A stretch of DNA of 64,000 nt from Candidatus Enterousia sp. (GCA_045617905.1 JAZLJO010000020.1:12818-76817); one strand, 5' to 3'; counted from the first letter of the stretch, positions 9,572 to 25,297 are shown. Made by a program: numbers and translations. The notes: generated by a model not told the origin, from the letters alone.

Positions 9572-10036
9572 ATGGCAAAAATTGATTATCAAAATTTATT
9601 GGATAACGCATTAAAATCTGTGGTTAAAGATGCATTAATACACGCACAATTTAACGGATTAGGCGATGGAACACATTTTTTTATAACGTTTAAAACACGT
9701 GCCCCGGGTGTTGTTTTACCAGATTTTTTGCGCATCAGATACCCAGACATAATGACAATTGTATTACAATATTCATTTAATAATTTAAATGTTTCTGATA
9801 AAGAATTCGGTGTTCAATTAACATTTGATGGCCGACCATTTTTTATCCGGGTTCCATTTTCTGCATTGATCGAATTTAAAGATCCATCTGTTGATTTTAT
9901 GTTATCATTTCATCCAAAGGGCACAGTTGCTGCCGATAACGATATGGAATTACCACTGGATGAAAATCCGGACACGACACCAGATACAGGCAGGGTTGTA
10001 TCACTGGATGAATTTAGACAGCGTAAAAACAATTAA
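9572..10036 (+). CDS. sspB: alpha-proteobacterial SspB-like ClpXP adaptor
   Basis: HFFITFKTRAPGVVLPDFLRIRYPDIMTIVLQYSF matches the SspB fold pattern. An acidic linker is followed by a C-terminal VVSLDEFRQRK tail resembling the ClpX-binding tail. Confidence 0.7.
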   Translation: MAKIDYQNLLDNALKSVVKDALIHAQFNGLGDGTHFFITFKTRAPGVVLPDFLRIRYPDIMTIVLQYSFNNLNVSDKEFGVQLTFDGRPFFIRVPFSALIEFKDPSVDFMLSFHPKGTVAADNDMELPLDENPDTTPDTGRVVSLDEFRQRKNN

Positions 10037-15022: not shown

Positions 15023-15098
15023 TGGTGCCGGCCACAAGACTTGAACTTGCGACCCCTTCATTACGAATGAAGTGCTCTACCAGCTGAGCTAGGCCGGC
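15023..15098 (-). tRNA. tRNA-Thr (CGU)
   Basis: Reverse complement GCCGGCCTAGCTCAGCTGGTAGAGCACTTCATTCGTAATGAAGGGGTCGCAAGTTCAAGTCTTGTGGCCGGCACCA. Cloverleaf is complete, anticodon loop TTCGTAA. Confidence 0.9.
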
Positions 15099-15235: not shown

Positions 15236-18169
15236 TTAAAATAATGTTCCCCAACTTTTGTTTTTTGTTAATCTGGATATTTCCAATATTTGTTGAATAT
15301 CCGCATTTTGATTATTCATTGATTCAAAATTTTCTTGGGACAACAATACATAAACCCACTGTGAATTCATGCGTTCAGATTCCGGTAATTCATTTATTTT
15401 TGCAATCCAATCTATGGCCCCCAATTCTTTGGATTTAGTATCGGGATTATTTACACGATCATTTCCCTTGGTTTCAACAACATAAATTTTATTGCCAATT
15501 TTAATCATAAAATCTGGATAATATGTTGCCAACATGCCATCGGTCCGTAAATATCTGAAACGTGCAAAAGTGTGTTTATTTTCGTTAATTTTTATAACAC
15601 GTTCAACTGATGAATCATTATCACAGGCGATTAAGAAATTACGTTCCAATTCGCCTTTGTTCGACGGATAAAATGTTTTTTCATAAATTGATTTTTTGAT
15701 ATCCAGTGCATAATTATCACGTCCAACCATTTTATCAACCGATGAAAAATAATGTTTTTCAACGATTGCTTCTTTGACATCAATATTATTATGCATTTCA
15801 TATATAGCCTTGGACAATTCAGCCATGGTATGTTGAATTATTGTTGTTTTTGATAAAACCAATATTCGCCAATTGCCATCAATCATTGGATCAAATGACT
15901 GGTCAAACAAACGTGTTCGTATATATTTATCGATTGTACGAACAAGTAACGTTTGATCAATTTGCATTAATGGCATTTCTGTTTTATGACCATTCGATGC
16001 AACCTTTGCAAAATTGGTTGTTATCGCACTTAACATTTTTTGCAAATATTCATTATACGATTTTGCGGTAAATATATCGCCCCTCACTTTGTATTCACCA
16101 AATTTTGTATGAACCTGCATTTCGGTACCGATAAATCTGTCTGCGTCGTCATGTGGAACCATTGCCTTTAACTGTTCTAAATTCCAACCATCCAAAGGAC
16201 GCATATTATCAACCGATATTTCTTTGCCAGATAATGTTTCTTCTTTATCCTGGATAATATGTGGCCAAAACATATCATAATCGGCATAATTTTCTTTTAA
16301 TCCAACATTTATCATATCCCCCAATGCGGTTGTAGTATCACGTGGCCGTTCGTGTGTTTCGACGGCAACCATATCATGTCCCATTTGGTCATAAAATGAT
16401 TTAAATGCGGGATGTTCAACAACAAACAATGTATCCAAATAATTTGATGGGGCCTGCTTTAATTCATAGATATTACGTCTGTTTTCAGCCTTAATCTCGT
16501 CATATTCACGTCCACGCCACATTAAACGCAGACCACGTCCCAAAACCTGTTCCAGCAATATCGGGGCCTGTGATGAACGCAGTGGCACAATCACACAAAT
16601 ATTATTTACATCAAAGCCTTCGCGTAACATTAAAACACTGACCACAACCTTTGGATGTGATTGTTTATCCAATGTAAATAATTTTTGTTTTAAATTTAAC
16701 CATTCATCTTCTTTTAATTCGCCCTTTTTATTAGAATCAATTTGCATAATATCGTTATCCGATAAACCTTCGGATTTAAAGAAATCGCATACAAATGGTG
16801 AAACATCGGTATCTTCACAAACAACCATTAATTTCGGATGTTTGTTTATATCGTGTTTGGCAAAATCGTCTTCTAGGATTCGCAAACGCGACAGGCCCGC
16901 ACGCAACATTAAACGTTGTCCATCCGACAGACCGATTACTTTGCCGGCACTGTTACGAACAGATTTAAAATCAATTTCAGAATTTGCCAGCGACGCAATT
17001 TCTTTGCGTTCATCCAAAATAAATGTTTTTACAAATCCGGCACGCATGGCGGTTGTTAATTCAAAATTAACCACGATATGCGGAAAAAAATGTTTTGTTT
17101 CATTTTTACCACCACCGGTTACCGAATACGGGGTTGCAGAAAAATCAATTTGAATATAATTTGCATTTTTACCATTTGAAATGGTATTTAATGATTTTTG
17201 CCATTCAACGTCTTGGGTTATGCCATAACTTTTATTTTCATGAATATGATGGGCTTCGTCATTAAATACGCAAATATTTGGTAAATTTGATAAATATTCC
17301 AAAATACCACCACGCAATAATTTTGAATCCAATATATCCAATGCATTACCGGCGGTAATACCGGGGGAAACCGGTAAAATATCACGTGCCATAGTGCGTG
17401 TTTGTGACAAATCAAAATTATCAGTTTGCACGTCCGTTTGTTCATCATCGTCATCATCGCATAATGCGTGCCAATTTGTTACGGCAATTAAACCATCACC
17501 CGTTGTTTTTTTACCGATTTCGGTTTTATCGGCAACCGCATTTTGGACAAATGAATATATATCATGGCGATATTTTTCAGGAATAAATAAATCCTGATTG
17601 CTTTTTATATCCGACGTATCAAAATTTCTGTTACCGGGGGTAATTTCTTTGCCACGGAACGCATCCAACAACCGTTCATAAACAATTAAACCAGGTGCAA
17701 TTAACAAAAAGTTTTTTGTATATTTAACTCCATTATTTGTTTGATGTTTTGCATTTAAATATTGCCATACCAATAACGCATTTAACACCCATGTTTTTCC
17801 CGTCCCCGTTGCCATTTTTACACAATATTTTGGGCATTTATATTTTGGGTTGTTTACAACATTAATAAATTCAGTATCGGTTGGGACATTTTCACCAATT
17901 GCAGAATACATATCCGATACAGATGTTGATTTTAATATTTCATGAACATAAATAGTATTCAAAATTGCCTGGCGTTGGCCAGGATGAAAATTACGATCAC
18001 GAATATCACAAAACGATGAATCAAACCAATAACGCAACAGGTCTGCGGTTATTAGTGATACATTATTTATAAAATACCCAGATTCCCAATCCGCATTCAC
18101 CTGTTTTGTTAATTGGGCCGCAAATTGCAATGGAATATCACGTATTCCCGTATTTTTTGGTGCCGTCAT
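15236..18169 (-). CDS. res: type III restriction enzyme Res subunit (SF2 helicase plus C-terminal PD-(D/E)xK nuclease)
   Basis: Walker A MATGTGKTW, DEAH box FNDEAHHIH, helicase motif VI QVLGRGLR, and C-terminal nuclease motif YYPDFMIKIGNKIYVVETKG. ATG 18169 is preferred (GGGGG SD 5 nt upstream); ATG 18181 is an alternative. Confidence 0.9.
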   Translation of the reverse strand: MTAPKNTGIRDIPLQFAAQLTKQVNADWESGYFINNVSLITADLLRYWFDSSFCDIRDRNFHPGQRQAILNTIYVHEILKSTSVSDMYSAIGENVPTDTEFINVVNNPKYKCPKYCVKMATGTGKTWVLNALLVWQYLNAKHQTNNGVKYTKNFLLIAPGLIVYERLLDAFRGKEITPGNRNFDTSDIKSNQDLFIPEKYRHDIYSFVQNAVADKTEIGKKTTGDGLIAVTNWHALCDDDDDEQTDVQTDNFDLSQTRTMARDILPVSPGITAGNALDILDSKLLRGGILEYLSNLPNICVFNDEAHHIHENKSYGITQDVEWQKSLNTISNGKNANYIQIDFSATPYSVTGGGKNETKHFFPHIVVNFELTTAMRAGFVKTFILDERKEIASLANSEIDFKSVRNSAGKVIGLSDGQRLMLRAGLSRLRILEDDFAKHDINKHPKLMVVCEDTDVSPFVCDFFKSEGLSDNDIMQIDSNKKGELKEDEWLNLKQKLFTLDKQSHPKVVVSVLMLREGFDVNNICVIVPLRSSQAPILLEQVLGRGLRLMWRGREYDEIKAENRRNIYELKQAPSNYLDTLFVVEHPAFKSFYDQMGHDMVAVETHERPRDTTTALGDMINVGLKENYADYDMFWPHIIQDKEETLSGKEISVDNMRPLDGWNLEQLKAMVPHDDADRFIGTEMQVHTKFGEYKVRGDIFTAKSYNEYLQKMLSAITTNFAKVASNGHKTEMPLMQIDQTLLVRTIDKYIRTRLFDQSFDPMIDGNWRILVLSKTTIIQHTMAELSKAIYEMHNNIDVKEAIVEKHYFSSVDKMVGRDNYALDIKKSIYEKTFYPSNKGELERNFLIACDNDSSVERVIKINENKHTFARFRYLRTDGMLATYYPDFMIKIGNKIYVVETKGNDRVNNPDTKSKELGAIDWIAKINELPESERMNSQWVYVLLSQENFESMNNQNADIQQILEISRLTKNKSWGTLF

Positions 18170-18181
18170 TTTTACCCCCAT

Positions 18182-20185
18182 TTATAATTCAACAATTGCC
18201 ATTGATTCAAATCCGAAAACGTCAACCGCTTTGACACAGATTTTTCGTTTATGATTAACTTTGCCAACAATTATCTCGGCAGAATGCACGATGCGCAATG
18301 GGTCATCATCATTGGCGGTATTTTCACGATAATCCTGCCAAACACTGCGGAAAGTATTACCATCATAATCGGGGTCAATTGACCAATATTCAATTAAATC
18401 CAATGGGCTGGCCCCCATAATTTGTTGAACGGTTTCTTTGGATTTATCATCCAATGGCAGGTTATCTGGGGATAACAAAACATAGTTATCCAATGTAACA
18501 ATCAGTTTTTCTTTGCCGTCTTCGTTTGCGGGTTTTACAACAGGTTCTTTGATTGTTAAATATTGCAAAGAATTAAAGCGTATTTTTTTATTTTCAACCA
18601 AATCTTTGTAATCTTTCTTTTTCAGCAAATCCAATAAATCAGGTGGTATTACCAAAACATCAATGGATGATTTATCCAATGTCGCCAATTTATCACCAAT
18701 ATCAAAACTGAAATTCCACCCCAATATGATAACACGTTTCCATCCCCCCATAAATGCATCACGCATTTCCAGCGCACGTTCAATTGTATTCGCATTTGTT
18801 ATTTTATTGGGACTGTCCACGATTACCAATGTTGATTCATCGCGCATATGTCCAACATTTAATGGGGCATCCGCGTCATCAAATGGCAATGCCCCATACA
18901 GGCCCATAATAACCCGTGCCAGATCGGACACACGACGGAATTGTTTGTCAGACAAGAATGCCTCGCGCGAGTAATCGCCAATTGAATGATACAGGAACGG
19001 TTTACAATCGGGTATATCAATCAGGCGTTTGCGCATAATCATGGTGGACGGTTTACCCAAATCAGACGTTATCCAACGACGCCCTAATTTTTCCACAACG
19101 GCGGTGGTTGTTCCCGAACCACCAAAGAAATCCGCCACAATGGAATTTTCATTTGACGATGCTTTGATTATACGTTCCAATAATTTTTCTGGTTTTTGAG
19201 TATTGTAATGCACATTTTCTGCGGCAGTTCCTTGTACATTAATAATGTCTGACCAGATATCATCCAACGCAACCCCAGGCATATCGTTTAAATAAAATTT
19301 TATATTTATAATTCCATTTTTTGACACAACAACTCTATTTTCTAAATTCAATTGTACCATTGATTCATCCGATCTTGTCCCTTTTGGTTGTAATCTATAA
19401 CGTCCCCTTTCATCTTCGTATTTAAACGTAGAATTAATATAATCATCTGTGTAATCTTGGTATTGTCTATTAAAAATAAAATTCTGTGTTTTTACATAAT
19501 AAAAAATACAATCATGATTACGTCCGAATTGATTCGATTTTGCTTTTCCTCCTTTCATCGTATCACGTTTCCAGACAATCTCATTTCTGAAATTATCTTT
19601 TCCAAATATATCATCTAACATGACTTTCAAATAATGACCGGCGTGCCAATCACAATGAACGTAAATTGAACCTTGGTCGGACAACAATTCTTTCATCAGT
19701 ACCAAACGTGGATACAGCATTTTCAAATACGATATTGTGCCATCCGCCCATGTGTCGGAATATGCGAATTGTTCCAAAACGGTTGGTTTTTGTTCCACGT
19801 CCCCATTTGGCAAGGTTATTTTTGTTCGATAATCTGCCTTGGAATCAAAGGGCGGATCAATATAAATCAAATCAATTTTGCCACGCATACTTGGCAATCC
19901 GGTTGCTGGATCACCCGATAATAATGCCTGCATCGCAAACAGGTTATCGCCATGGATTAAACGATTAAACCAACCGTCCGCGTCACACAAGGCGCCGTCG
20001 GTTGGTGGACAACACGCCCTGATTTCACCACGGAACAGGCCACTGCTGTCACGGGCGGGTAAAACATATTCATTTGTTTGCAACATTAATTTATTATCAG
20101 ATTGTGCACGTTGTAATATTTTTTCAACCGTACGTTTACCCTGTGCAACAACATCCGGTAACATTTCAATCAGTGTTTTTGTCAT
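18182..20185 (-). CDS. mod: type III R-M Mod subunit (beta-class N6-adenine/N4-cytosine DNA methyltransferase)
   Basis: Motif IV IYIDPPF precedes motif I FFGGSGTT with a variable region between them, which is the Mod architecture. ATG 20185 lies 5 nt after GGGGG. The stop abuts res. Confidence 0.9.
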   Translation of the reverse strand: MTKTLIEMLPDVVAQGKRTVEKILQRAQSDNKLMLQTNEYVLPARDSSGLFRGEIRACCPPTDGALCDADGWFNRLIHGDNLFAMQALLSGDPATGLPSMRGKIDLIYIDPPFDSKADYRTKITLPNGDVEQKPTVLEQFAYSDTWADGTISYLKMLYPRLVLMKELLSDQGSIYVHCDWHAGHYLKVMLDDIFGKDNFRNEIVWKRDTMKGGKAKSNQFGRNHDCIFYYVKTQNFIFNRQYQDYTDDYINSTFKYEDERGRYRLQPKGTRSDESMVQLNLENRVVVSKNGIINIKFYLNDMPGVALDDIWSDIINVQGTAAENVHYNTQKPEKLLERIIKASSNENSIVADFFGGSGTTTAVVEKLGRRWITSDLGKPSTMIMRKRLIDIPDCKPFLYHSIGDYSREAFLSDKQFRRVSDLARVIMGLYGALPFDDADAPLNVGHMRDESTLVIVDSPNKITNANTIERALEMRDAFMGGWKRVIILGWNFSFDIGDKLATLDKSSIDVLVIPPDLLDLLKKKDYKDLVENKKIRFNSLQYLTIKEPVVKPANEDGKEKLIVTLDNYVLLSPDNLPLDDKSKETVQQIMGASPLDLIEYWSIDPDYDGNTFRSVWQDYRENTANDDDPLRIVHSAEIIVGKVNHKRKICVKAVDVFGFESMAIVEL

Positions 20186-20212
20186 ATTGCCCCCGTTTTG
20201 TGTTAAAACAAA

Positions 20213-20378
20213 AACCACCGGAAAAATCGGGTGGTTGGAGGTTCAGAACTATTATGCTATAAAAATAGTGTGCTTATTTTATGGGCATGCCCATATTATT
20301 CACAGCCCTCCAACCCTTTTAAGTTGGAGGTTTTTAACGTCCCCGCAGACGTATAGCATTCAGAGGTTCTGACACCCC
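20213..20378. repeat. structured GC-enriched element, copy A (between the mod start and the AT-rich module)
   Basis: Perfect stems: AACCACC/GGTGGTT (20213-19/20230-36), TCAGAAC/GTTCTGA (20243-49/20366-72), ATGCTATA/TATAGCAT (20254-61/20352-59), CCTCCAAC/GTTGGAGG (20307-14/20323-30). Central palindrome ATGGGCATGCCCAT (20281-94). Confidence 0.7.
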
Positions 20379-20454
20379 AATGGAAAAAATCATTCCATCG
20401 TTTTAATAATAAAAACAACCACACAAAAAATCAAATGAAAACGAATAAAAATAT

Positions 20455-20481
20455 CACCGTATAAATACAATCTATACGGTG
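20455..20481 (-). terminator. intrinsic terminator of the four-gene module
   Basis: Minus sense CACCGTATA-GATTGTATT-TATACGGTG followed by ATATTTTTATTCGTTTT. Confidence 0.6.
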
Positions 20482-20537
20482 TAAAAATGTATGCGAATTG
20501 ATTAATAAATTTCAATTATTTTGATTTTCATTTTTTT

Positions 20538-20858
20538 CTAGAATATTGCCAATATATCTATTTCGTTGATTATTTCATTTAATGATTTATTTGCAAATAA
20601 CTTTGCAGACAAAAACGATTCCGTCATATCTGTTTGATTATCAAATAATTCGTCATACAATTGTTGTGATATACTGTCGTGTTTATTTTTCGTAATCGTT
20701 TCTTCGGATGAATATTCGTATTTTGACAACATTATAAAATATTTATGATTTTCATTAATGCCACTGCTTATCAAATATACAAAATCATTATATTTAAATT
20801 CAATATCACACCCATAAAAGATTTCGTTATATAATTCTTGAATATCTAATTTCTTCAT
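20538..20858 (-). CDS. hypothetical protein, one copy of a repeated ~90-aa domain (immunity-protein-like by context)
   Basis: ATG 20858 follows GGGGCGGA (MKKLDIQELYNEIFYGCDIEFKYNDFVYLI). The track start 20879 is an extension. No family recognised. Confidence 0.55.
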   Translation of the reverse strand: MKKLDIQELYNEIFYGCDIEFKYNDFVYLISSGINENHKYFIMLSKYEYSSEETITKNKHDSISQQLYDELFDNQTDMTESFLSAKLFANKSLNEIINEIDILAIF

Positions 20859-20988
20859 TTTCCGCCCCATTTTTATCACGTTCTAAATACGCACTGGTTA
20901 ATATATAATATTTATCATTGTATAAAATCTCTATATCACCACCATGATATAATTCGTCATAAAATTCAGAAAATGTAAACCCTTGCAT
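20827..20988 (-). pseudogene. 53-codon truncated paralogue of the downstream gene
   Basis: Hand translation MQGFTFSEFYDELYHGGDIEILYNDKYYILTSAYLERDKNGAENEEIRYSRII. Residues 7-32 align about 13/32 identical with the N-terminus of the 20538-20858 product. Below the 60-aa track cutoff. Confidence 0.35.
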
Positions 20989-21010
20989 TTTATAATCCGT
21001 TTATATTCCA

Positions 21011-21577
21011 TCATTTTAATATAAAATATTGCTGATTGGTTGTTTGCATTATATTTTTTATTGTGATTTGCATATTAGGTATTATAACCGAACATAAATC
21101 ATTAAAGTCAGATATTGTACGTTCGTATATTATATTACATTTTTCATCGCGTATTTGCAGCAAACAAGGTTTGATTAAATAAATAACAATATTTTTGTAA
21201 AACAATACAAAACTTACATCGTCAATTTTTTTATTTTCCAAGATGGACACAAATCTATCAAATACATTTCTTTGTGATAAAAATTTTTCACGTTTGTATG
21301 TCATACCAAGTTCAATATCATTTTCTGATAATTTGCTTAATATTTCATGCATTGTTTTGCCAACATTTTCCATTGGAATGTTTAACATATCGTCAAAATT
21401 ATTCCAACTATATTCATATATTTTTTGTGGTTTTGTCTTAAAATATCCATATCCATAATAATTACCATGATAATCAAAATGAAAATCATTAAAATCAAAA
21501 CGAAACAATTCTATAAAATCCTGTTTTTGTTTTTCTTTATTTATGGCAACCAATAATTTATCTAATGCGTTTTTCAT
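21011..21577 (-). CDS. hypothetical protein with two copies of the same repeated domain
   Basis: 188 aa. The motifs FRFDFNDFHFDY and FVLFYKNIVIYLI resemble FKYNDFVYLI of the downstream gene. Its ATG overlaps the upstream stop (ATGA). Confidence 0.55.
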   Translation of the reverse strand: MKNALDKLLVAINKEKQKQDFIELFRFDFNDFHFDYHGNYYGYGYFKTKPQKIYEYSWNNFDDMLNIPMENVGKTMHEILSKLSENDIELGMTYKREKFLSQRNVFDRFVSILENKKIDDVSFVLFYKNIVIYLIKPCLLQIRDEKCNIIYERTISDFNDLCSVIIPNMQITIKNIMQTTNQQYFILK

Positions 21578-21978
21578 TTGTTATGCTCCTGTATCTTGCG
21601 TATTATATCACCATATTCTTTTAATTCGTTATCACTGATTTGCCTGCCATTATTTTTACGTATCATATAATCTCCATCTTTAACGAAATCATGAACATGG
21701 ATATTGCCTTTATTTAATTTATAATGATTTTCATGTCCAAAATCTATATCTATGACGGGAGCATGATTTTTATAAATACGCATTTGTGTATATTTATTAT
21801 TTTTATTTACGGCAATATAAACATCCGATTTGCCAGAATACTCAGGTAACCCTGCTGATGTTTTTCCTTTGGCTTTTATAACTTTTTTACCATAAAATAA
21901 ATTTGTTGTTTCAAACAATGTATCATCAGGATTTAGATATGTAAAATTATTGCTTTTAAAAGCACCGCGACCACCCAT
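21574..21978 (-). CDS. small His-rich hypothetical protein (candidate effector/toxin, unassigned)
   Basis: 134 aa starting MGGRGAFKSN, with the motif DIDFGHENHYKLNKGNIHVHDF. Translationally coupled at both ends (TAATG, ATGA). GGGGGA SD lies inside the upstream gene. Confidence 0.55.
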   Translation of the reverse strand: MGGRGAFKSNNFTYLNPDDTLFETTNLFYGKKVIKAKGKTSAGLPEYSGKSDVYIAVNKNNKYTQMRIYKNHAPVIDIDFGHENHYKLNKGNIHVHDFVKDGDYMIRKNNGRQISDNELKEYGDIIRKIQEHNK

Positions 21979-22649
21979 TATTTATCCCCCATATTTGAAT
22001 TTGATATCCAGTTGTAAGTTGTATTATGTATATGTAATATTGGTATAGAGCTGTATTTAACAGCAAAATTACCACCATACATAATAATTTTACATGGTTT
22101 CAATCTATTTAACATCTCAACAAAACCGTTTTGAAAAAATTGTTTAGAATTATTATTCTTAGATATACCAACTGTTGAGACCGCTATAACACCATGTTTA
22201 TAAATACCATTAAAACAAAAATCATAACTATTTTTTCCAGCCCATGAAACATTCGGTATAACATTTATGCCATTTTTTTGAAAAATAGTCCCAATTAACC
22301 GCGTTCTAAATATATTATATATTTGAATTGGTTTAGGCATATCTAACAGTATAGAAAAATCGGGTTCTATAACACATGGGAACTTTTGTAATATAGGTAT
22401 ATATTTATATGGATTATTCCAAACAGATTCTATCTTTCTATCTTCTTGAAAAAAATGAACTATTTTATTTTTTTCTTTTGTTTTATATATATCAGAAAAA
22501 GCGATCGCTTCATTCGGTATTTGATCAAAAAGTTGTTTTTTTAAAACAGGAATTTGATACTCATTTGTTAAATTTTCATAATCTATATCATTCATATGAT
22601 ATTTTTTATCAAAAAAAACACTAATATGTTGCTGCATTTTTATTCTCAT
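21978..22649 (-). CDS. DUF4417-like protein
   Basis: 223 aa. HFFQEDRKIESVWNNPYKYIPILQKFPCVIEPDFSILLDMPKPIQIYNIFRTRLIGTIFQKNGINVIPNVSWAG matches my memory of the DUF4417 (phage/MGE-associated) consensus. Not verifiable here. Confidence 0.6.
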   Translation of the reverse strand: MRIKMQQHISVFFDKKYHMNDIDYENLTNEYQIPVLKKQLFDQIPNEAIAFSDIYKTKEKNKIVHFFQEDRKIESVWNNPYKYIPILQKFPCVIEPDFSILLDMPKPIQIYNIFRTRLIGTIFQKNGINVIPNVSWAGKNSYDFCFNGIYKHGVIAVSTVGISKNNNSKQFFQNGFVEMLNRLKPCKIIMYGGNFAVKYSSIPILHIHNTTYNWISNSNMGDK

Positions 22650-22682
22650 TGTTTATTTATTAAGTTAAATGAGAACTGGGCG

Positions 22683-22860
22683 GTCGGGGTGTTAGAAAAA
22701 TCAAATCGTTAATGATCCCATTGGTTTTTGGGCATGCCTTGAACATATACCAACGGCACCCCGATCATAACATGTAAAAATGCATACAATCGGATTACGA
22801 TGCTTTTGCACCGAACGATTGGGACTTTTCTAAGGTCCCGAACCCAATTCCCATTGGATT
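22683..22860. repeat. structured GC-enriched element, copy B (upstream of the DUF4417 operon)
   Basis: 22683-22720 pairs with 22824-22860 (about 31 bp including 2 G.T), for example TTAGAAAA/TTTTCTAA, TCGGG/CCCGA, ATCGTT/AACGAT. Central GGGCATGCC at 22740-48. Confidence 0.7.
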
Positions 22861-22975
22861 CGCTACAAAACATATATTTATTTTATCAAAAAATCAATAC
22901 AAAAATATAAATATGTATTTTTACAGGATTTGTATCATATGTATTATTATCTAAATTGATGGTATTTTATATATT

Positions 22976-23620
22976 ATGCATACGATATTGGCATATTACG
23001 GTTTAATGATTATAAAATTAATCATGGCAATTGGGGTTGCCGTCATATATTTGCGTTATTTTACCGCGGCGGGTAATTTAAAACAAATGACCGCATTGGA
23101 TATTATTATTAATTTCTTGTTAAGTGCGATTCTGTCTGATTTTATTTTGGACCGCCATATTGGTATTATGGATTTTGTTATAATTGTAACGATTTATGGG
23201 GTTCTGCTGTATGCACTTAGCAAATTAACCCTGTATACAAATGTTGGACGACGCATATTTATTGGAACACCACATGTCATTATTCAAAATGGAAAATTGG
23301 ACACAGAACGCATGGCACGATTAAATATATCGGCCCATGATTTGGCAATGGCATTACGCAGACAACAAATTCAATCCATTCATGATGTTGAAACCGCCGA
23401 AATAGAACCAAATGGTGATTTTACCATTGTAAAAAAAGGCGACAGAAAATATTCTGTTGTAATTATTGATAATGGTAATATTGATAAATTTGGGCTGGCA
23501 AAAATTCAGAAAAACGAAAAATGGCTGCGTACACAATTACGACGAAAAAAAATAAAAGACATTGATGATATTTTAATTGCCCAATGGCACAGGGGACGAT
23601 TACAAATTGTAAAAAAGTAA
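22976..23620 (+). CDS. DUF421 (YetF-like) membrane protein
   Basis: Three N-terminal TM helices followed by a soluble domain (GTPHVIIQNGKLDTERMARLNISAHDLAMALRRQQIQSIHDVETAEIEPNGDFT), typical of the YetF/YdfS family. Confidence 0.7.
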   Translation: MHTILAYYGLMIIKLIMAIGVAVIYLRYFTAAGNLKQMTALDIIINFLLSAILSDFILDRHIGIMDFVIIVTIYGVLLYALSKLTLYTNVGRRIFIGTPHVIIQNGKLDTERMARLNISAHDLAMALRRQQIQSIHDVETAEIEPNGDFTIVKKGDRKYSVVIIDNGNIDKFGLAKIQKNEKWLRTQLRRKKIKDIDDILIAQWHRGRLQIVKK

Positions 23621-23644: not shown

Positions 23645-25297
23645 TTATTTATTTCCACACTTTATTTTACGCATAACAACCATTATGCCGGCCGGTGTCA
23701 TTCCGGGGATACGCGATAATGCCGCAATATTTTCCGGACGTGTAATTGTCAATTTTTCAATTAATTCATTCGTTAACCCAGGCATATTTTTATATTCAAA
23801 ATCACGTGGGATTTTTAATTCCATATCACGTTTATATGCGTCCATTTCACGAATCGAACGTTGAATATATCCGGCATAAAATTTATCGTTTTCTAAAATT
23901 TTCTGCGAACGCATTGCATATTTTTCACGATACATATCATCAGAAATCATATTACAACGCACCGCCATTTGTCCCAATCGGACAATCGCGTTATCCGCAC
24001 GCAAATGTAATCTGTATTCCGCACGTGATGTAAACATACGATATGGTTCATCAACACCCAACGTTGTTATATCATCAATCAATACACCAATCATTGAATT
24101 TGTTCTGTTTATATCCAACATTTCACCACCAATCGCACGGGCGGCAGCATTGGCACCGGCAATTAAGCCTTGGGCGGCGGCCTCTTCATAACCACTGGTA
24201 CCGTTAATTTGACCTGCAAAAAACAATCCGGGGATATCTTTGGATTCTAAATGTGCATCCAATTTACGTGCATCAATTGCATCATATTCAATTGCATACC
24301 CATAACGTGCAATACGTGCATTTTCCAACCCCGGTATTGTTCGTATCCAAATATCTTGAATATCGGCACCAAAACTGGTTGAAATGCCATTGGGGTATAT
24401 TAAATCGCTGTCTAAGCCTTCGGGTTCTAAGAAAACATGATGCGATGTGTGATCAACGAATCGCATTACCTTGTCTTCTAAACTGGGGCAATATCGCGGT
24501 CCAATCCCTTCGATATCGCCATTATACATCGGTGCATTTGCAATATTATCACGTATAATTTGATGTGTTTTTTCGGTTGTATGCGTAATAAAACACACCG
24601 CTTCATAATTATTTTCGGCGGTGGCGGTGGAAAACCAATCATGTGGTTTGTCACCCGGTTGCAATTCACACACAGAAAAATCAATACTGTCACGATAAAT
24701 ACGTGCCGGTGTTCCGGTTTTTAAACGCATTAAACGAAAACCTGCCCTTTCCAACACAGGTGATATATGTGTATCCGGTGATTGATATTCACCATTATCC
24801 ATTAAACGCCCCGATGATATTTTTTCAGCGCCACGCGTTACCAAACCACGCAAAAATGTTCCAGTTGTAAAAATCAACGCATTTGATTGGTATTTATCGT
24901 TTACAACTTTGGCATCAATATCTAATTTTTCAACGGTATCAAAAACGATTGTCAAATTCTGATATTCTTTTAAAATTTTTATAACCGCCGCATGATACAA
25001 TTTTCTGTCAATCTGGGCACGTAATGCCTGGGTCGCCGCCCCATGTGATGCATTTAATGTTCTGAAATGAATACCGGCACAATCGGCCGCACGGGGCATA
25101 ACGCCACCAAACGCATCCATTTCTGCGACCATTTGGGATTTTCCCGGCCCACCAATACTGGGGTTGCAAGACATTGCACCCAAATCTGTTTCATGCATGG
25201 TCAACAACAACGTTTTTGCACCACGACGGGCCGCAGCGGCGGCCGCTTCAACCCCGGCATGTCCCCCACCAATAACAATCACATCAAATTTTTGCAT
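23645..25297 (-). CDS. mnmG: tRNA uridine 5-carboxymethylaminomethyl modification enzyme MnmG (GidA), short form
   Basis: FDVIVIGGGHAGVEAA, MSCNPSIGGPGK, GPRYCPSLEDK, FFAGQINGTSGYEEAAAQG. It is 550 aa, against about 620-630 aa in E. coli, which is 629 aa. Confidence 0.9.
   Translation of the reverse strand: MQKFDVIVIGGGHAGVEAAAAAARRGAKTLLLTMHETDLGAMSCNPSIGGPGKSQMVAEMDAFGGVMPRAADCAGIHFRTLNASHGAATQALRAQIDRKLYHAAVIKILKEYQNLTIVFDTVEKLDIDAKVVNDKYQSNALIFTTGTFLRGLVTRGAEKISSGRLMDNGEYQSPDTHISPVLERAGFRLMRLKTGTPARIYRDSIDFSVCELQPGDKPHDWFSTATAENNYEAVCFITHTTEKTHQIIRDNIANAPMYNGDIEGIGPRYCPSLEDKVMRFVDHTSHHVFLEPEGLDSDLIYPNGISTSFGADIQDIWIRTIPGLENARIARYGYAIEYDAIDARKLDAHLESKDIPGLFFAGQINGTSGYEEAAAQGLIAGANAAARAIGGEMLDINRTNSMIGVLIDDITTLGVDEPYRMFTSRAEYRLHLRADNAIVRLGQMAVRCNMISDDMYREKYAMRSQKILENDKFYAGYIQRSIREMDAYKRDMELKIPRDFEYKNMPGLTNELIEKLTITRPENIAALSRIPGMTPAGIMVVMRKIKCGNK

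Follow-up and report, generated by a model that had tools for sequence, protein, structure and literature searches.

The 64,000-nt stretch of Candidatus Enterousia sp. DNA analysed here (GCA_045617905.1, JAZLJO010000020.1:12818-76817; referred to below as the window) carries two non-coding elements, A and B, that are paralogous copies of one promoter-plus-5'-leader RNA family, both transcribed from the minus strand. Element A (about 20400-20203) is a complete leader RNA before mod-res, a Type III restriction-modification pair, with its 5' end at about 20400 and the end of its U-tract at 20203. Element B (about 22862-22664) is the leader of an operon with a gene for a DUF4417 protein; it is full-length as far as a strand named R3 below, and lacks strand R1 and the 3' strand of the terminator. 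From comparative and folding evidence we predict, with a probability of roughly 65%, that the leader is a transcription attenuator, in which case A would be a complete switch controlling mod-res. Features are on the minus strand unless stated otherwise.

An earlier note on this DNA, made from the sequence alone, had proposed two homologous structured elements in the same orientation, and models built from outside the window bear this out. An nhmmer profile of 118 non-window sequences recovers B at 22863-22672 (E=2.5e-34) and A at 20339-20181 (E=1.4e-5), with no third match in the 64-kb window. A covariance model of the 3' domain, from 94 non-window sequences, recovers A at 20332-20203 (40.7 bits, E=1.2e-8) and B at 22782-22664 (38.1 bits, E=5.5e-8), the next-best match in the window reaching 15.7 bits (E=0.03). 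As both window-independent models find both elements, the observation is real and far beyond chance. The window thus holds two copies, both on the minus strand.

Several details of the earlier description need correction. Aligned directly, A and B are scarcely more alike than noise (BLAST gives at best a 14-nt segment, E=0.046, and there is a 12-nt inverted match), so that homology is visible only through the family; a repeat search inside 20150-22950 was swamped by AT-rich chance repeats. Both elements had been drawn too short and on the plus strand, whereas the functional sense is the minus strand. The coordinates of the arms and palindrome of A (20237-49, 20283-91 and 20366-78) were right, and those of B were all 10 nt too high: the true left arm is at 22686-98, GGGCATGCC at 22730-38 and the right arm at 22827-39. 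The consensus GGrGnkTyAGAAm given for the four arms does not fit the fourth (GGGACCTTAGAAA), even with one mismatch.

The search for the family began with mod homologues 68-82% identical to the one here, in animal-gut metagenome-assembled genomes (MAGs) labelled Ca. Enterousia, Alphaproteobacteria or proteobacterium; identities of this order would by themselves place the window in that lineage. In 12 related mod loci the 250 nt upstream form a conserved non-coding block ending in a terminator, a Shine-Dalgarno (SD) sequence and ATG; B, read on the minus strand, aligns with this block over its full length to the terminator, and A over the 3' half. A metagenome pattern scan, in which GGGG and CCCYGA were fixed, gave at least 120 loci, practically all with a homologue of 200-250 nt. 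A scan of viral contigs gave three true copies; of its ten matches to an initial 3'-domain pattern, seven fell by chance in GC-rich coding sequence and were rejected. Further homologues and compensatory changes had been set beforehand as a check, and both were found: there are at least 130 distinct leaders (137 matches listed) of 200-250 nt each, with covariation at 46 of 61 pairs. They come from Ca. Enterousia-like gut Alphaproteobacteria MAGs and from gut, rumen and termite metagenomes. The family is abundant in gut Alphaproteobacteria with reduced genomes, those of the Ca. Enterousia / Rs-D84 type; Ca. Enterousia and the order Rs-D84 comprise uncultured gut bacteria with genomes mostly below 1 Mb (PMC12306168). 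We found no description of the extended leader in Rfam 15 or the searched literature, and no published name for it.

Architecture and covariation of the leader

Statistics on the anatomy of the leader are from 101 aligned sequences (alignment A2). Counted from the first base of hairpin P1, the family promoter has its TATAAT at -12/-13 (in 56 of 100 copies), preceded by TG at -15/-14 and TTG at -36, and the RNA starts with P1, 6-7 nt past this conserved extended -10 box. The order from 5' to 3' is P1, P2, H5, two variable hairpins, R1, R2, P3, H3, a hexamer partner, AAC, R3 and the terminator. P1 usually has a GNRA loop (GAGA or GGGA), hairpin P2 carries the loop hexamer U-NNN-AA, and the first of the variable hairpins is often closed by GAAA. 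R1 (consensus CCCUGAC) is paired with R2 (GUCGGGG), R3 has the consensus CCCCGACC, and the AAC beside the hexamer partner is invariant. The terminator (GACCGCC ... GGCGGUU) is followed by U-rich sequence, with a U-tract in 94 of 99 copies. P3 has a conserved UAUAnAAnA / GAAA internal loop, reading UAUAnAAnA in most copies, and a 3-bp apical stem that had been noticed earlier as a central GGGCAUGCC palindrome. That stem is indeed a covarying hairpin tip (its first pair is GC in 54 copies and CG in 41), but the palindrome itself is not conserved.

Two adjacent long-range helices tie the 5' domain to the 3' end, one between the P2-loop hexamer and the hexamer beside AAC, the other between H5 and H3. 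The first forms part of the pairing proposed for the arms, which consists of the junction GGGG plus hexamer against the hexamer partner plus CCCC. It is a real long-range helix, 97.2% paired in 101 homologues, with three or four pair types in comparable numbers at each of the three positions in the centre of the hexamer. Covariation also links the junction to R3 (GC in 82 copies and AU in 8 at column pair 49/304), and the H5:H3 helix has double changes in 6/6 pairs. Over the whole 61-pair structure, 93.9% of cells are paired compared with 82.5% in column shuffles, and controls with slid partners give 34-47%. Double changes occur in 46/61 pairs and 736 cells, and 0/500 shuffles reach this level. 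In gene sense there are 682 G-U and 74 A-C cells, about nine to one, which identifies the gene-sense strand as the folded strand and speaks for RNA rather than duplex DNA. Minimum-free-energy (MFE) folds of A, B and two relatives, which do not depend on the alignment (z=-5.2 to -6.3), reproduce the outer helices, inner hairpins and terminator, and show the closed-plus-terminator state.

Hexamer and H5 together give 94 different combinations among 99 sequences, and only the central hexamer triplet varies freely. The flanks of the pseudoknot hexamer U-NNN-AA (A2 columns 56-61; 22827-22832 and 20366-20372 in the window) are almost invariant; there are 32 different six-letter strings, a few with misalignment gaps, which differ mainly in the central triplet. 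Its outline recalls an anticodon loop (U33, anticodon, A37, A38), possibly by coincidence. A leader peptide was considered and rejected, as an AUG occurs in only some of the P1 loops, is not conserved and is absent in many other copies (GAGA loops).

Element A has an MFE of -71.3 kcal/mol (z=-5.7) and its fold matches the family architecture. A promoter scan identified a -35 box TTGATT (20434-20429) and a -10 box TATTAT (20411-20406) separated by a 17-nt spacer; this promoter (20406-20434) agrees in position with that of the family, whose distance to P1 is 6-7 nt. Hairpin P1 (AUGGAA-UGAUUUU-UUCCAU, 20380-20398) was read from the sequence and is present in the MFE fold. The former right arm (20366-20378) consists of GGGG, which provides the junction and the 5' strand of P2 (GGGG/CUCU), then UG and the hexamer UCAGAAC (20372-20366), and in the MFE fold pairs with 20249-20237. 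H5 (AUGCUAU, 20353-20359) and H3 (AUAGCAU, 20254-20260) are the complementary 5' and 3' strands of the second long-range helix, also found in the MFE fold. Between them lie R1 (CCUCCAAC, 20323-20330), the anti-antiterminator strand, R2 (GGUUGGAGG, 20307-20315), the switch strand, and P3, with 5/8 pairs in P3a and the hairpin tip P3b (GGG-CAUG-CCC, 20283-20292), the central palindrome of this copy. The former left arm, with its extension (20233-20249), comprises the hexamer partner GUUCUGA (20249-20243), AAC and R3 (CCUCCAACC, 20241-20233). R2 can form 8/8 pairs with R1 and 8/8 with R3. The intrinsic terminator (20203-20236) is made of AACCACC (20236-20230), a 10-nt loop, GGUGGUU (20219-20213) and UUUGUUUU, with 7/7 pairs; its 5' strand overlaps R3, and the covariance model aligns it to the family terminator. 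The mod ATG (20185) lies 27 nt past the terminator stem, which is the family median.

Relative to the family consensus GGUCGGGG/CCCCGACC, R2 of A shows two compensatory double changes. The changes are matched across all three strands, R1, R2 and R3 (CCUCCAAC / GGUUGGAGG / CCUCCAACC), and have turned the terminator into AACCACC/GGUGGUU. The 5' half of A is diverged in sequence and recognisable by structure only; it was misaligned by MAFFT, and the pairings UCAGAAC:GUUCUGA and AUGCUAU:AUAGCAU were taken from the sequence and the MFE fold. A plus-strand "terminator" called by the scan at 20307-20330 is the R1:R2 hairpin of A on the wrong strand, and is a trap for annotation.

Element B is near-consensus from P1 to R3 and has an MFE z of -6.2. 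Its helices are paired at 8/8 (P1), 6/6 (hexamer), 6/6 (H), 6/6 (P2a), 8/8 (P3a) and 7/8 (R2:R3) positions. P1 (GAAUCCAA-UGGGAA-UUGGGUUC, 22840-22861) is identical to the family consensus. P2 (GGGAC/GUCCC, 22821-22839) carries the loop hexamer UAGAAA (22832-22827) and includes the right arm at 22827-22839. R2 (GAUCGGGG, 22759-22766) has no R1 upstream; P3b (GGCAUGCCC, 22730-22739) is the palindrome of this copy. The segment 22682-22708 contains H3 (CGAUUUG, 22708-22702), the hexamer partner UUUCUA (22698-22693), AAC and R3 (CCCCGACC, 22689-22682), and with them the left arm at 22686-22698. A putative promoter (22869-22897), with -35 TTGATT (22897-22892), a 17-nt spacer and -10 TATGTT (22874-22869), lies in the register of the family promoter; it has 8/12 matches, below detection by the consensus scan. 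A 54-codon open reading frame (ORF) in B (22709-22873), with no family match, overlaps the structured RNA and is a second annotation trap.

Competing helices and a possible attenuation mechanism

The G-rich strand R2 is complementary both to the upstream R1 and to the downstream R3. RNAalifold, run unguided, makes R2:R3 the closing stem. In its extended form this helix is 95% paired; beside the G and C runs, column pair 218/300 occurs as AU in 52 copies, GU in 25, UA in 17 and GC in 5, and 0/500 shuffles reach this level of covariation. In R1:R2 four pairs show double changes. The terminator is 96.9% paired, with double changes at three pairs and column pair 309/331 as GC in 71 copies and AU in 24. 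Since the GACC of R3 is common to R2:R3 and the 5' strand of the terminator, the two helices are mutually exclusive, and each is backed by compensatory changes. The terminator stem is followed by an SD-preceded start codon at a median of 27 nt (84/101 copies), which leaves no room for a second promoter; thus, the downstream gene can be transcribed by read-through only.

We predict that the gene would be off when R1:R2 and the terminator form, which is also the minimum-free-energy state, and that transcription would read through when R2:R3 forms. Which of the two prevails would be set by the large 5' domain, which has GNRA loops and a pseudoknot, in response to a signal, and this could be a small molecule, a protein or RNA. 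The conserved, covarying structured domain expected of a riboswitch is present, and an exclusive terminator/antiterminator platform is found in A and the family, though not in B. Both A and B (the latter with its putative promoter) have a promoter of their own, 6-7 nt from P1, and are followed on the same strand by a gene, mod and DUF4417 respectively; R1:R2 and an R3-overlapping terminator about 27 nt before the start are present in A, and B has neither R1 nor the terminator 3' strand. The earlier suggestion of a shared cis-regulatory leader RNA is supported by the promoter upstream of P1, the strong covariation, the G-U bias and the position of the terminator 27 nt before an SD-preceded start, and the placement of each copy, in minus sense, 5' of an operon (A before mod-res, B before the DUF4417 operon) was correct.

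Terminator/antiterminator riboswitches and attenuators (1:2/2:3/3:4, T-box) likewise share a strand between antiterminator and terminator just before the start codon, and complex aptamers resemble the leader in their large size, GNRA loops and pseudoknot. In contrast to riboswitches and T-box leaders, the analysis of this one pointed to no ligand, tRNA or leader peptide, and its regulon is not metabolic; Rfam riboswitch and T-box models gave no match.

Among the 137 matches listed, a same-strand ORF starts close to the 3' end in 128, and the other nine are at most 71 nt from a contig end. Most of the downstream products have no Pfam family and start with signal or lipoprotein peptides. Recognisable among them are List-Bact repeat proteins (8), N6/N4 DNA methylases (4) and outer-membrane beta-barrels (3), and further products include autotransporters, Big_2, PAP2, TRL, family-2 glycosyltransferases, one C5 methylase and one PLD nuclease. 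The downstream set is one of envelope and DNA modification functions, with no metabolic theme pointing to a ligand.

Several points weigh against attenuation. The analysis pointed to no ligand or protein partner, and the downstream genes are so diverse, and mostly without a Pfam family, that no metabolite suggests itself. Some helices overlap (P2 with junction:R3, and the P4 hairpin of an Rfam model, discussed below, with H3), and several sets of conformers are possible. The GGGG/CCCYGA constraint of the search partly makes R2 and R3 almost invariant, so that the covariation of R2:R3 rests on one column pair and on A. Element B has no terminator, and attenuation cannot be its mode of action. 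Support is comparative and thermodynamic throughout.

Kinship with sRNA-Xcc1 and alternative readings

At curated thresholds, Rfam places no family in the window or in seven related loci, in agreement with the earlier note, which did miss a sub-threshold kinship with the small RNA (sRNA) family sRNA-Xcc1 (RF02221). The 3' core of relatives scores 32.6-48.8 bits against this model, whose gathering threshold is 53, with E-values down to 5e-8 in a small search, and the alignment runs end to end (model positions 1-87; L116 aligned). A and B themselves were not matched by RF02221 in a search of the window at E<=10. Shared with sRNA-Xcc1 are the closing stem (equivalent to R2:R3), P3 with an AUAcAAuA / GAA loop, the small apical stem and a C-rich 3' tail beginning a terminator. 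The RF02221-type closing stem and AUAcAA/GAA hairpin are present in both copies (R2:R3 7/8 and P3a 8/8 in B; 8/8 and 5/8 in A). From these matches we conclude that the 3' core of the leader (R2, P3, R3) is a distant homologue of sRNA-Xcc1; the scores being below the family threshold, A and B are not filed as RF02221 members.

Lacking in sRNA-Xcc1 are the extra 5' domain of about 110 nt (P1, P2, P2a, P2b), the R1 strand and a canonical terminator. The extra domain pairs with the region that forms the second hairpin of the RF02221 model; the Rfam-model P4 hairpin (AAUCA/UGAUU) overlaps H3, and three sequences covary for P4 (AACA/UGUU). What is new here is the extension of an sRNA-Xcc1-type core by a 5' domain, an anti-antiterminator strand and a terminator. 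This adds a large, strongly covarying, pseudoknotted class of leader RNA from an uncultured, genome-reduced gut lineage.

sRNA-Xcc1 was reportedly published as a trans-acting sRNA by Chen et al. in 2011 (cited in PMC12444791 and PMC7313666), in contrast to the cis-acting architecture of the leader, and it is routinely annotated as a virulence-linked sRNA. Bona fide copies are found on mobile DNA: sRNA-Xcc1 lies directly upstream of symE, on the same strand, in Xanthomonas integron cassettes (PMC12444791) and upstream of an ORF6N gene, again on the same strand, in APSE phages (PMC7313666). Our positive control, an E. coli prophage sRNA-Xcc1 (79.6 bits), has an ORF6N gene 38 nt downstream, also on the same strand. 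This gene-upstream position would fit a leader role for sRNA-Xcc1 too. Given the kinship and the consistent position of bona fide copies, we predict that sRNA-Xcc1 may be a cis-acting or self-targeting leader module; the searched literature contained no paper treating it as a cis-regulator. In the E. coli E2855 prophage (NZ_AP018796.1; L210:1600-3565), a cell-division-inhibitor gene follows the ORF6N gene, and a partial C4 antisense RNA match lies upstream of a Rha-family regulator, a layout that recalls phage immunity (immI-type) regions.

The c4 RNA of phages P1 and P7 (C4, RF01695; isrK, RF01394) is also embedded in a leader and also has two short segments complementary to two downstream segments; in P1 immI, a'/b' of c4 pair with a2/b2. 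As with c4, the complementary pairs of the leader differ among copies yet stay matched. An alternative to attenuation is therefore a self-addressed antisense RNA of this type, which we regard as possible and rather unlikely. The 5' domain, or the terminated leader, would accumulate as a small RNA whose hexamer and H5 form an "address" that pairs in trans with the H3-hexamer site of nascent transcripts from the same locus, giving negative feedback, and near-unique addresses would prevent cross-talk between copies. Two adjacent antisense segments matching two target segments, the 94 combinations in 99 sequences, the different addresses of A and B, and the c4-like position of bona fide sRNA-Xcc1 directly upstream of prophage ORF6N antirepressor-like genes are all in its favour. 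Neutral compensatory drift can, however, also yield such diversity. The two partners are only about 200 nt from each other in a single leader, whose MFE is the cis fold, and pairing in cis is therefore simpler to assume. Unlike that of c4, the target is not at a ribosome-binding site; it is part of the leader itself, upstream of the terminator. C4/isrK models (Rfam clan CL00128) gave no match on the transcribed strand, the sole match being isrK on the plus strand of A, with 16.2 bits against a threshold of 50.

Less likely again is a constitutive structural 5' untranslated region, serving as promoter cassette, mRNA stabiliser or transcriptional insulator, that would sense nothing and in which the alternative pairings would be incidental. 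The extreme heterogeneity of the downstream genes, the promoter of each copy and the fact that B works without a terminator fit such an element. Against it, 97% of copies have a terminator right before the start codon, and without a way past it the gene would be silent; compensatory changes preserve this terminator and, equally, the R2:R3 helix that competes with it. An R1 that mimics R3 is also hard to explain without switching.

The likeness of the 3' core to RF02221 could instead mean that the elements are free-standing genes for trans-acting sRNAs, with the terminator as the sRNA end and unrelated neighbouring genes, but we consider this improbable. The sRNA proposal of the earlier note holds to the extent that the core is a distant relative of sRNA-Xcc1; that core is built into a leader. 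The same-strand ORF close to the 3' end in 128 of the 137 matches listed, and the SD-preceded start at a median of 27 nt past the terminator (84/101), which leaves the gene without its own promoter, speak for a connection with the gene. The leader also accompanies mod in 12 species that have no other synteny in common, and bona fide sRNA-Xcc1 too is found just upstream of genes (symE, PMC12444791; ORF6N, PMC7313666).

We reject explanations at the level of DNA (a miniature inverted-repeat transposable element (MITE), an attC-like or other recombination site, or an invertible segment with the arms as inverted repeats) as very improbable, even though the arms form inverted repeats with about 130-140 bp between them, a foreign AT-rich module lies between A and B, and other MAGs have what looks like a true invertible promoter at related mod genes. 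Only one of the two strands is able to pair (682 G-U versus 74 A-C), and a conserved asymmetric internal loop (CUG opposite ACU) interrupts the arms. All 128 testable copies among the matches listed have a same-strand ORF and none is inverted relative to its gene. An inverton is contradicted by the place of the promoter, upstream of both arms, by the single orientation seen and by the G-U asymmetry. The integron attC form fails, as the arms GTTCTGA and GTTAGAA fit neither GTTRRRY nor RYYYAAC cores. The MITE or palindromic-element (RPE- or REP-like) proposal does not survive the single orientation to genes, the promoter (outside the arms) and terminator of each copy, and the count of two copies in 64 kb. 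Nor do A and B share the arm, hexamer and helix sequences that a pair of recombination sites delimiting a cassette would need.

Genomic setting, the AT-rich module and the control of mod

The region around the two leaders consists of five minus-strand features and one plus-strand gene. The Type III restriction-modification pair (res, 15236-18181; mod, 18182-20185) is followed by A, by a five-gene AT-rich module (20538-22649; 2.1 kb with 23-29% GC in a context of roughly 38-40%) and by B; the divergent yetF-like gene (22976-23620, plus strand) comes next, and mnmG, at 23645, marks the boundary of a low-GC stretch. A thus occupies the gap between module and mod, and B that between module and yetF. 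The two "bracket" the module for no other reason than that each leads one of two consecutive operons. The DUF4417 operon is closed by an intrinsic terminator (20455-20481; terminator scan: a 12-bp stem, then a T-run) located between the module and the promoter of A. The DUF4417 protein (21978-22649) is nuclease-like, matching the phage "nuclease" PHROG phrog_940 (E=6e-55), and the module otherwise consists of four small ORFs of no family. PADLOC gave no credible match for the module proteins, exact-sequence look-ups of the DUF4417 protein and YetF returned no record, and in a synteny comparison of 209 related loci the module was found in none. In the same comparison neither mnmG nor yetF lies near mod-res, and only mod-res is common. 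We conclude that the module is probably a recently acquired cassette.

Past CCCCGACCGCC the sequence of B becomes AT-rich, the switch falling within 22664-22682, and the same position is the terminator loop in other copies. This suggests that the terminator hairpin was the site, at or within which leader B and the module became connected, and that the expression platform of B would have been replaced when the module was acquired. The replacement 3' end (22643-22675), read from the sequence, is a hairpin of UUCUCAUU (22675-22668) and AAUGAGAA (22650-22643) with no U-tract, and it covers the first AUG (22649) of the DUF4417 ORF. B keeps its sensor and R2:R3; it is probably either locked on or acting through the hairpin over the DUF4417 start codon, which would amount to translation control.

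Most 300-nt windows between 14950 and 23650 have about 28-37% GC, compared with roughly 38-45% in the flanks. The low-GC stretch runs from just past tRNA-Thr (15023-15098) to mnmG (23645), and includes res-mod and yetF as well as the DUF4417 module; it may be a single composite island.

In five related MAG loci (L001, L003, L004, L005, L015), a serine recombinase gene and a 103-bp segment are found upstream of mod instead of the leader, the recombinase ORF being directly upstream of the segment. The segment is inverted between L001 (647-749) and L004 (about 9866-9968), with collinear flanks of 94-100% identity, and L003, L005 and L015 are collinear with L001. By sequence comparison it resembles an invertible promoter that would control mod, and it takes the place that the leader has in other relatives. 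Such phasevarions act on the gene that leader A precedes, and the set behind the leaders (surface proteins, glycosyltransferases, DNA methylases) resembles phase-variable gene sets. The leader differs in being an RNA device with a single orientation and no adjacent recombinase. Since some relatives apparently use an invertible promoter at the same mod gene, the leader RNA may be an alternative solution to the same regulatory problem. The genes that it precedes, restriction-modification here and elsewhere mostly surface or envelope functions, are phase-variable in other host-adapted bacteria. More speculatively, and with doubt, we suggest that the leaders might provide genome-wide RNA control of accessory, "contingency-type" genes (surface proteins, glycosyltransferases, restriction-modification) in genomes below 1 Mb, combining a sensor of a global signal with a per-copy self-address (hexamer triplet plus H helix) for c4-like feedback in trans. 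Were this true, the widely annotated "sRNA-Xcc1" of Xanthomonas, Xylella and enterobacterial prophages would also be the core of a cis- or auto-regulatory leader and not a conventional trans-acting sRNA.

In relatives, mod and res are separated by a gap of 370-720 nt (L006:11923-12552 and its equivalents in L003, L004, L007, L011, L013, L016 and L017). In the window, unlike these, res starts directly after mod (18181/18182).

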